64,000 nt of DNA from the NCBI GenBank assembly GCA_963669175.1, contig OY769902.1, forward strand, positions 2,677,586-2,741,585, read 5' to 3'. Position 1 is the stretch's first letter, and every line of letters begins with the position of its first letter. Below are positions 40,190 to 41,593 of this stretch, one piece after another. The notes under the pieces are model-generated. The model saw only the letters and a list, made by a program, of their open reading frames with translations. It made no database searches and was not told where the DNA came from. The position numbers were made by a program, and so were the translations under genes. Origin of the DNA: a bacterium. Lineage in GTDB: Bacteria > Electryoneota > Electryoneia > Electryoneales > Electryoneaceae.

Positions 40190-40253
40190 AGCGTTTCATG
40201 ATATTGGCATTGTCTTCCACGCCATGCTTGTCTCTACAAGTCATTCCCGACCT

Positions 40254-40366
40254 ATATGTCATCCTCGACCACCCTGTCATCCCCGGCCCTCCACTATGTC
40301 ATCCTCGACCACCCTGTCATCCCCGGCCCTCCACTATGTCATCCCCGGCTTGAACGGGGATCTCGA
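40254..40366. repeat. Left repeat block: 2 x 40-nt direct repeat (TATGTCATCCTCGACCACCCTGTCATCCCCGGCCCTCCAC) plus a 33-nt terminal inverted repeat TATGTCATCCCCGGCTTGAACGGGGATCTCGAG
   Basis: The 33-mer is the reverse complement (one mismatch) of the unit repeated 8 times downstream of the GIY-YIG gene. Confidence 0.85.
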
Positions 40367-40409
40367 GCGATGTCGAGCAAAGACCTAATCAACAGAAAGG
40401 GAATTTGTT

Positions 40410-40691
40410 ATGTATTACGTTTACATCCTGACCAATGACCGGCATACGGTTTTCTATACAGGGATCACTAATGATATTGTCAGACGTGTGCATGAGCACA
40501 AAGAGAAAATGATTGAGGGGTTTACGAAGCAGTACAATGTATCCAAGCTAGTCTATTTCGAAGAACATCACAGAGTTGATGATGCCATCCGCAGGGAAAA
40601 GAGACTCAAGAAATGGGACAGGGCGTGGAAAATAGAATTGATTGAAAAGGATAATCCGGAATGGAGCGATTTGTATGATATGTTCTTTTGA
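40410..40691 (+). CDS. Small GIY-YIG (URI) domain nuclease-family protein (UPF0213/YhbQ-like)
   Basis: 93 aa: MYYVYILTNDRHTVFYTGITNDIVRRVHEHK...E. This carries the GIY-YIG fold hallmarks (YVYIL ... YTGIT ... R ... H ... E). Confidence 0.8.
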   Translation: MYYVYILTNDRHTVFYTGITNDIVRRVHEHKEKMIEGFTKQYNVSKLVYFEEHHRVDDAIRREKRLKKWDRAWKIELIEKDNPEWSDLYDMFF

Positions 40692-40697
40692 CATCCT

Positions 40698-41365
40698 CAC
40701 ACCGGTCTCGAGATCCCCGTTCGAGCCGGGGATGACATAGCGGAGGACTGGGGATGACATGTCGTTAGGATTGGCGCACCGGTCTCGAGATCCCCGTTCG
40801 AGCCGGGGATGACATAGCGGAGGACTGGGGATGACATGTCGTTAGGATTGGCGCACCGGTCTCGAGATCCCCGTTCGAGCCGGGGATGACATAGGGGAGG
40901 GCCGGGGATGACATAGTGTCGGGTATTGGCGCACCGGTCTCGAGATCCCCGTTCGAGCCGGGGATGACATAGTGTCGGGTATTGGCGCACCGGTCTCGAG
41001 ATCCCCGTTCGAGCCGGGGATGACATAGCGGAGGACTGGGGATGACATGTCGTTAGGATTGGCGCACCGGTCTCGAGATCCCCGTTCGAGCCGGGGATGA
41101 CATAGGGGAGGGCCGGGGATGACATAGTGTCGGGTATTGGCGCACCGGTCTCGAGATCCCCGTTCGAGCCGGGGATGACATAGTGTCGGGTATTGGCGCA
41201 CCGGTCTCGAGATCCCCGTTCGAGCCGGGGATGACAATCTATATGAGGATGACAAGCTATATGGGGATGACTGGTTATATGAGGATGACATGCTATATGG
41301 GGATGACATGTGTAAAAAGGATGACATGTAGACCGGGGATGACAGTGGGGTTGAGGGTGACATGG
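40698..41365. repeat. Higher-order tandem repeat array. 8 copies of the 42-nt unit CACCGGTCTCGAGATCCCCGTTCGAGCCGGGGATGACATA alternate with three recurring 16-38-nt fillers, followed by about 10 copies of a GGRGATGACAT 13-15-nt repeat
   Basis: Read directly from the sequence. The unit contains the hairpin CCCCG-TTCGAGC-CGGGG (5-bp stem with a 7-nt T-loop-like loop). The fillers are not unique, so this is not a CRISPR array. Confidence 0.9.
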
Positions 41366-41593
41366 AGTGCGGGAATGGAAAGAAGCCTCTTAGCGTTAAA
41401 AGCAATTCCTTTTCATTCCTGCAATTAGTACTCATTGTGCGTACAATAATAAAGGTGTTCCGGGAGGGGTGACTGGGATAATTATCACAAGGATCCTTAC
41501 CGGGAATTTCCCACCAGCACCTGGAGCCGGGTGAGTAAGTGGTTCGATCCATCATGCCTGATGCAATGGATCATTAGCAAGGGAGGAGTGGCT

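Follow-up and report, generated by a model that had tools for sequence, protein, structure and literature searches.

Single-domain GIY-YIG proteins of about 94 amino acids (aa), gathered in the CDD under cd10448 (GIY-YIG_unchar_3), have been described as the Ssn family by Chenal et al. (2025, Nat Commun; PMC11893778). Hairpin repeats, called NTS in Neisseria (CGTCATTCCCGCGMAVGCGGGAATCYRG) and, in general, 'Ssn-related motifs' (SRM), border their genes, and four purified members each cut their own repeat as single-stranded DNA (ssDNA) only, on one strand and a few nucleotides (nt) upstream of the motif (PMC11893778). We describe here a 93-aa GIY-YIG gene flanked by such repeats, in a 64,000-nt stretch of contig OY769902.1 (assembly GCA_963669175.1, positions 2,677,586 to 2,741,585), referred to below as the window. 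Its host belongs to an uncultured FCB-group lineage, the host MutS being 64% identical to that of Candidatus Electryonea. The homology of the protein and the make-up of the repeats lead us to regard the locus, with good confidence, as an Ssn/SRM cassette, that is, an Ssn-family nuclease gene together with its cognate SRMs, each consisting of a GTCAT box, a 7-bp hairpin and ATC.

Several details of the published system are needed to read this locus. Binding depends critically on the C that follows the palindrome, cleavage on the bases that precede it; the SsnA mutants Y6A, Y17A and E64A have been published; and a first-half site is cut in vitro when the second half is given in trans, while the loop tolerates long insertions (PMC11893778). 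Homologues were counted in that work at tblastn E < 1e-10, the SRM was condensed into the degenerate pattern HGTCWYN(0-2)YYVSBRHN(0-5)WNVSBRGN(0-2)RNCYNB, and the enzyme/site pairs were put forward by the authors as useful ssDNA-specific cutting tools (PMC11893778).

Results

The encoded protein is a clear homologue of SsnA. The GIY-YIG domain (PF01541) covers residues 1-75 (Pfam, E 4e-16), and neither Pfam nor NCBIfam detects a second domain in the 93-aa protein, NCBIfam assigning it to no family. Compared with the SsnA orthologue of N. gonorrhoeae, it is 51% identical over 86 aa (E 2e-25; pairwise E 9e-32), and its residues Y5, Y16 and E63 align with Y6, Y17 and E64 of SsnA. The gonococcal reference is the single matching open reading frame (ORF) found in each of two 2.17-Mb N. 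gonorrhoeae records of PLSDB; we take it as the SsnA orthologue because it is 94 aa long, its numbering fits Y6/Y17/E64 and it is surrounded by eight canonical NTS repeats. Homologues number 2006 and are mostly 93-100 aa long. The similarity to the UPF0213 protein BH0048 (structure 1ZG2) is weak (E 0.004), and a PADLOC match to UzuA, restricted to 27 residues of the GIY motif (E 4e-4), was not accepted as membership of that family. All the Ssn features that we tested are present at the locus: size, homology to SsnA, catalytic residues, SRMs on both sides and a hairpin with GTCAT and C. The view, held when the locus was first read from its letters, that small GIY-YIG proteins of this kind have no established function is outdated, since four Ssn members are site-specific ssDNA endonucleases that bind their flanking hairpins (PMC11893778). 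Two side observations concern the gonococcal records: both are filed as 'plasmids' although they are chromosome-sized, and in one locus (L024, NZ_CP119142.1 1880219-1883476) the ATG that precedes ssnA does not share the reading frame of the conserved ORF, and a frameshift may thus affect the start of this ssnA.

The repeats around the gene match the SRM. The window contains 11 matches to the published pattern, where 100 dinucleotide shuffles give 0.34 +/- 0.65, and nine of these matches are the repeats that flank ssn: one upstream (40337-40365, + strand) and eight downstream (- strand). The left repeat, TATGTCATCCCCGGCTTGAACGGGGATCTCGAG at 40335-40367, and the first right copy, CTCGAGATCCCCGTTCGAGCCGGGGATGACATA at 40707-40739, are reverse complements of one another but for one loop base. 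Folded as ssDNA, the hairpin has a stem of 7 bp (ATCCCCG/CGGGGAT), a loop of 7 nt and an energy of -6.8 kcal/mol. In an alignment of 10 SRMs from seven loci, a small and hand-picked set, neither GTCAT nor the ATC behind the stem varied, and the stem was 100% paired, with two compensated positions. We agree with the proposal that the GTCAT/ATGAC motif is the probable recognition element of the protein. Of the two remaining matches, that at 10080 is without a clear hairpin and is probably due to chance. The other, CGTCATTCCCGCGAAGGCGGGAATCTAC at 12218-12245 (+ strand), is a solitary and near-canonical Neisseria-type NTS/SRM in the gap that separates two long ORFs of the - strand (10024-12150 and 12316-13770); with its canonical TCCCGCG-type hairpin it belongs to another subtype than the repeats at ssn, so two SRM families may be present in this genome, and a second ssn gene may perhaps lie outside the window.

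The array to the right of the gene is a mosaic. An exact 31-nt core recurs eight times (starts 40707, 40784, 40861, 40939, 40995, 41072, 41150 and 41206) where none is expected by chance (100 shuffles), with start-to-start distances of 77/77/78/56/77/78/56 nt. The repeat programs report unit lengths of 77/78 and 56 nt, and in addition a higher-order unit of 211 nt whose two copies (40770-40980 and 40981-41191) are 100% identical. Inspected by eye, the modules succeed one another as S a S a S cb S b S a S cb S b S, where S is a 39-nt repeat module and the fillers are of three types (38, 17 and 22+17 nt); an extra half-site is carried by five of the fillers. A CRISPR array was considered and rejected, because the seven fillers are three recurring sequences, not unique spacers; there is also no adjacent cas gene. 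Beyond the array, the tail of half-sites terminates in CGGGAATG, the mirror of GTCATTCCCG at 40240.

The locus also has half-sites, meaning GTCAT with the 5' stem arm but without the 3' arm. On the left they are spaced by 18/18/22/18 nt, and a 40-nt sequence within the tract is repeated directly and exactly (40255-40294 and 40295-40334); both the left and the right tracts are unstructured when folded as ssDNA. Altogether 26 GTCAT sites were mapped, and every one of them faces the gene: the six to its left are on the + strand, the 20 to its right on the - strand. Full sites, which have the hairpin, account for nine of them (one left, eight right), and 17 are half-sites (five left, five in the fillers, seven in the tail). 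The short motif GGGGATGACA, with at most one mismatch, is found 27 times in the window against 5.7 expected, and 23 of these matches fall within 40257-41344, those before the gene on the - strand and those after it on the + strand; a match at 25982, around which there is no SRM hairpin, was treated as chance. The inverted repeats are nested: an inner one reaches 58 nt at 93% (40310-40367 against 40861-40918 and 41072-41129; I1-I7), and an outer, imperfect one delimits the repeat-gene-repeat unit in its entirety (Table 1).

Most of the architecture that the sequence-only reading had outlined stands: the gene is framed by inverted repeats, the right-hand repeat is amplified eight times with recurring fillers, the left side carries two additional 40-nt direct repeats, the short motif points towards the gene from both sides, and mutS and a nuclease gene are the neighbours. 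The inverted repeats of 33 bp are likewise there, except that the left one had been placed one base too low and the repeat is longer than was supposed.

Table 1. Positions of the cassette, its parts and the neighbouring genes in the window
Feature	Position	Strand	Basis and remarks
mutS	37538-40189	+	five MutS Pfam domains
Left half-site tract, five SRM 5' half-sites	40240-40336	+	starts 40240, 40258, 40276, 40298, 40316; repeat finders, GTCAT map
Outer imperfect inverted repeat (I8)	40242-40286 vs 41333-41377	.	45 nt, 82% complementary
Left full SRM hairpin, TGTCATCCCCGGCTTGAACGGGGATCTCGAG	40337-40367	+	SRM-pattern match; sense towards gene; inner part of 58-nt inverted repeat
ssn, 93-aa single-domain GIY-YIG nuclease gene, Ssn family	40410-40691	+	PF01541 and SsnA homology
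Right array, eight identical full SRMs	40707-41236	-	sense towards gene; Tandem Repeats Finder, repeat finder, SRM pattern
Right tail, seven SRM 5' half-sites, 18-nt period	41237-41377 (half-sites 41245-41361)	-	decays outwards; repeat family D3
Staphylococcal-nuclease homologue	41594-42070	+	right neighbour

The same layout recurs around homologous genes. We inspected the flanks of five close homologues from metagenome assemblies and of nine plasmid-borne homologues, and the order SRM(+)-gene-SRM(-), with GTCAT pointing inward, was found in five loci (L017, L044, L046, L049 and L053), whose hosts are an Omnitrophota (L017), an Omnitrophica metagenome-assembled genome (MAG; L044), Shinella, Rhizobium and Aeromonas. 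The Azospirillum ssn gene has inverted SRM doublets on either side, one locus (L018) shows the orientation opposite to that of the ssn locus, and L015, L025 and Planktothrix carry long-loop SRM variants that the published pattern misses. The notion that the gene and its repeats form one unit is borne out. As an observation apart, ssn on plasmid p1 of Planktothrix agardhii (L045) sits in a defence island, with an MmeI-type restriction-modification gene on one side and drmA, which encodes the DISARM helicase, on the other.

Half-site tails recur as well beside ssn in unrelated bacteria, at the Omnitrophica, Planktothrix, Aeromonas and Neisseria loci in addition to that of the window. In the two closest homologues, the downstream SRM is followed by five 18-nt units with GGGGATGACA (L044, 65% identity; 2816-2910) and by three 19-nt units (L043, 69% identity; 1100-1150). 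Degenerate half-sites with a 19-nt spacing lie alongside the gonococcal gene (L024 1397-1424), and shorter or degenerate tracts are found downstream of the gene in Aeromonas and Planktothrix (L045, L053), with spacings of 23 and 29 nt in Planktothrix. The half-sites always stand 5' of the full SRM on the sense strand, which is the side of the reported cleavage. The main text of the Ssn paper contains no description of natural half-site tracts, nor the word 'tandem' (PMC11893778).

The repeat itself reaches well beyond this lineage. In a scan of 185,579 species-representative GTDB genomes, a set that lacks the source genome, its 22-nt core (consensus CTGGATCCCCGTTCAAGCCGGGGATGAC) was found in 14 genomes of very different phyla, among them Parcubacteria, Saccharimonadales, Berkelbacteria, Dependentiae, Bacteroidales, Fibrobacter, Rhodoferax and Acidobacteriota, and in nine of the 14 the site passes the full SRM pattern; no ssn gene was found in the 2.5-8 kb fetched around each match. 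The repeat is therefore unique neither to the locus nor to the lineage, and it is one widespread SRM variant. In four Parcubacteria and Saccharimonadales MAGs of the candidate phyla radiation (L002, L005, L009 and L010), SRMs of the CCCCGG and TCCCGCG types stand 6-17 nt apart in inverted orientation; these mixed doublets are REPIN-like, and the 4-8 kb fetched per locus contains no ssn gene. A metagenome scan returned only two unrelated high-GC contigs with one SRM-like 29-mer each: CGTCATCCCCGGCTTGAACGGGGATCTCT, perfect in both (L035 6679-6707 and L036 10736-10764), is embedded in an apparent GC-rich coding region of an unrelated metagenomic organism.

As for the surroundings, ssn is the single credible gene in the gap between mutS and the staphylococcal-nuclease homologue. 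That neighbour is of the secreted type, and the neighbourhood is not kept in the relatives compared. Two - strand ORFs, 40697-41125 (142 aa) and 40842-41555 (237 aa), cross the repeat array; their translations are repetitive (…MSSPARTGISRPV…), and they are almost certainly repeat-derived artefacts, open to mis-annotation by gene callers, which should not be called genes. A promoter and terminator scan gave no signal above shuffles.

Discussion

Family membership, the motif match, the hairpin, its orientation and the recurrence of the layout in homologues are all direct observations, and together they identify the locus as a further example of the system described in 2025. The suggestion that it might be a novel element is set aside, because the published SRM pattern matches nine times at the locus and the protein is a clear homologue of SsnA. 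What is of interest beyond membership is the extreme one-sided amplification of the repeat and the recurrent, phased half-site tails.

Some points weigh against this identification and should be kept in mind. The comparison with SsnA was made with a gonococcal orthologue reconstructed from DNA, not with NMV_0044 of N. meningitidis. The hairpin energies are no better than those of shuffles (z about -1.3), as expected for a short stem. The SRM subtype of the ssn locus was not found elsewhere in the window, which is 64 kb of a 5.45-Mb genome, and the half-site tracts are unaccounted for by the published Ssn model. Finally, the restriction of transformation seen in Neisseria may be inapplicable to this host.

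By analogy with the characterised members, the protein most likely acts as a site-specific endonuclease on ssDNA, binding the hairpin of the SRM on one strand and cutting immediately 5' of it. One may picture that SRM DNA becomes single-stranded when it enters the cell by transformation or conjugation, where replication leaves gaps or while repair proceeds, whereupon the protein would bind the hairpin of the SRM-sense strand only and cut a few nucleotides 5' of GTCAT; it would presumably be inactive on duplex DNA, on RNA and on the complementary strand. Its target strands would be the + strand on the left and the - strand on the right, where up to eight sites would be available within 530 nt, and it is because of this opposite placement of the sense strand that the sites look like terminal inverted repeats facing the gene. 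Of the 16 4-kb bins into which the window was divided, 13 show a positive GC skew on the + strand; if the skew marks the leading strand, the amplified sense sites would lie on the strand least exposed as ssDNA during replication, which is a weak inference. The cellular role could be the restriction of incoming ssDNA, as in Neisseria, or that of a selfish or domesticated repeat system.

The eight-copy mosaic, with its perfect 211-nt duplication, looks like the product of recent local tandem duplications among identical SRMs, through slippage or unequal recombination. The half-site tracts are the weakest step of the scheme. They might be footprints of slippage on the cleavage side of the SRM, or else alternative 5' arms that would compete for the one 3' arm which the adjacent full SRM provides; these two possibilities, alternative arms and slippage scars, are entertained because a first half is cut in vitro once the second half is present in trans and because long insertions in the loop are tolerated.

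Among the alternatives to an Ssn nuclease acting on its resident repeats, the most probable one takes everything from about 40240 to 41377 for an autonomous mobile element, whose GIY-YIG protein would act as a transposase on hairpin ends by analogy with the TnpA of IS200/IS605 or with RAYT/REPIN, the array and the half-sites being footprints of its activity. We hold this to be unlikely, although several observations speak for it, beginning with an inverted-repeat architecture that comprises both the inner (58 nt, 93%) and the outer (45 nt, 82%) repeats. The nearest relatives of the protein are at most 69% identical and scattered over unrelated phyla, whereas the MutS of the same host has a relative at 87%. 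The idea of an IS-like or RAYT-like behaviour has already been raised by the Ssn authors; yet only ssDNA cleavage has been shown for Ssn, and no strand-transfer or joining activity has been reported (PMC11893778). Moreover, the protein consists of the GIY-YIG catalytic core only and belongs to no known class of transposase or recombinase. At the locus, no target-site duplication was found at either candidate boundary (outside 40240 and 41377), there is no second copy in the window, and the 90%-identity cluster of the protein has a single member on a single contig. A homologue that is identical wherever it occurs (P0068, 24 contigs) has the same upstream neighbours in all 10 of the places listed.

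Host relatives without ssn next to mutS would also fit movement of the unit, and the comparison of the region downstream of mutS, which had been proposed as a check, gave a divided answer. Neither ssn nor SRM was found in the 6 kb fetched downstream of mutS in relatives whose MutS is 87%, 70% and 69% identical (L020, L021 and L023), so the cassette is not conserved among them; however, the synteny shared with these relatives is limited to mutS, and being broken around that gene it yields no true empty site. The mobility that the sequence-only reading had proposed thus lacks a second copy, a target-site duplication or an empty site at this locus and finds its support at the level of the family, in Azospirillum.

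In A. lipoferum 4B (L048, NC_016623.1 254718-256584) the 617-nt spacer between sufB and sufC consists of an SRM doublet, ssn and a second SRM doublet. The corresponding spacer measures 91 nt in A. ramasamyi, with flanks 96.5% identical, and 129 nt in B510, both without ssn or SRM (L054, L055), and more than 20 further records match sufB and sufC only. The cargo-less 4B doublet, for its part, occurs at 33 places on the five 4B replicons, against one to three in relatives. Azospirillum shows that the cassette is gained or lost as a unit and that its repeat is dispersed, much as in REP/RAYT, but the mover need not be Ssn, and the indel has no definable ends, since the spacer itself is not conserved.

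It is nonetheless tempting to spell out what would follow if SRM-ssn-SRM cassettes were, as we consider improbable, a new class of mobile element, in which a minimal GIY-YIG ssDNA nuclease mobilises or seeds hairpin-ended DNA. They would then be the functional analogue of IS200/IS605 and RAYT/REPIN on a different fold. The half-site tails of 18-19 nt would be a working part, either as alternative 5' arms forming a ladder of cut sites or as scars of cutting and resynthesis, and the present locus, with 8 full sites and 17 half-sites, would be an unusually or recently active copy.

Less probable still is that the array arose by local expansion of simple sequence, or in the assembly, and is functionally unlinked to the gene, the true locus having one repeat on each side. 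The complete identity of the eight SRMs and of the two 211-nt units fits recent slippage or misassembled repeats, and short-read contigs with homologues often stop just downstream of the gene. Against this, an ordered mosaic of three filler types with a decaying tail is an unlikely invention of an assembler, the source contig is 5.45 Mb long, and multi-copy SRM clusters surround ssn in finished genomes of N. gonorrhoeae, Rhizobium and Photobacterium. Such an error would in any case bear on the copy number alone and leave the identification of the system unchanged.

The reading of the repeats as derived from the 3' half of a tRNA (T-arm and acceptor stem), which takes up the T-arm likeness noted at first and would make them SINE/MITE-like or an integrase attachment site, can be dismissed almost entirely: on the + strand of the right array G-TTCGAGC-C does agree with GTTCRANYC, the consensus of the T-loop, and 7 nt and an A come after it, but ARAGORN finds no tRNA or tmRNA in the window, Rfam gives nothing at its gathering threshold and, at E<=10 in 40100-41500, three 17-bit noise matches of which none is a tRNA, the stem has 7 bp and not 5, the loops of homologous SRMs (GCAG, GAAA, CTTGA) bear no likeness to a T-loop, those of other SRM variants measure 3-5 nt, no integrase is nearby, and the TTCGAGC reading lies on the strand opposite to the SRM sense, so that we regard the resemblance as coincidental. 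A phage origin was likewise rejected, there being no tblastn match in 50,697 phage records and no 22-nt core in IMG/VR, which yielded only six weak or moderate relatives of the protein.

Understood as an Ssn/SRM cassette, the locus extends the system to an uncultured FCB-group lineage near Candidatus Electryoneota and supplies a distinct enzyme/site pair (GTCAT-CCCCG-GCTYGAA-CGGGG-ATC). It also exemplifies three features beyond the published model, namely the amplification of sites on one strand, mosaic fillers and phased 5' half-site tracts, the latter on the side where cleavage is expected. The presence and absence of the cassette between sufB and sufC in Azospirillum, for its part, offers a natural filled-versus-empty case for studying cassette movement.

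Comparison with known systems

The closest counterpart is the Ssn/SRM system represented by SsnA of Neisseria meningitidis (PMC11893778), with which the locus shares a protein of about 94 aa that consists of one GIY-YIG domain, has 51% identity to SsnA of N. gonorrhoeae and keeps the catalytic Tyr/Tyr/Glu, as well as GTCAT-hairpin-ATC repeats inverted on either side of the gene, and degenerate 5' half-sites, which lie at 19-nt spacing beside the gonococcal gene as well. It differs in its hairpin, which is ATCCCCG-GCTYGAA-CGGGGAT here and ATTCCCGC-GMAV-GCGGGAAT there; in its eight downstream SRMs, which form a direct, mosaic tandem whereas the gonococcal upstream cluster alternates in orientation; in the length of its half-site tracts (5, 5 and 7 copies); and in its host, an uncultured FCB-group bacterium instead of a proteobacterial symbiont.

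The REP/REPIN repeats with their RAYT proteins (IS200/IS605-like Y1), and the BIME clusters, offer a second parallel. There too a single-copy gene lies between inverted hairpin repeats that its product recognises as ssDNA, and the repeats cluster in mosaics with fillers; dispersed, cargo-less inverted doublets are seen in the Azospirillum relative. We rejected membership of REP/RAYT, as the product is a GIY-YIG protein and not an HUH Y1 enzyme and the resemblance is architectural only: a hydrolytic nuclease stands against a transesterase of unrelated fold and chemistry, Ssn is not known to form a covalent intermediate or to join DNA, and the dispersal of repeats by Ssn itself is putative.

The Neisserial intergenic mosaic elements (NIMEs) are made of dRS3 repeats separated by RS fillers. 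Like the present array, they join hairpin repeats of about 20-30 nt with a small set of recurring fillers in alternation; unlike it, they are dispersed near many genes and often alternate in orientation, whereas here a single array, with all its repeats direct, stands beside ssn. Lastly, free-standing GIY-YIG homing endonucleases of the I-TevI type resemble the locus through the GIY-YIG catalytic domain and an intergenic, insertion-like position, but the 93 aa of the present protein hold the catalytic core only and thus lack a linker or DNA-binding domain, the ssn gene lies outside any intron or phage (the phage records searched contain no homologue), and its expected substrate would be ssDNA hairpins instead of a duplex homing site.

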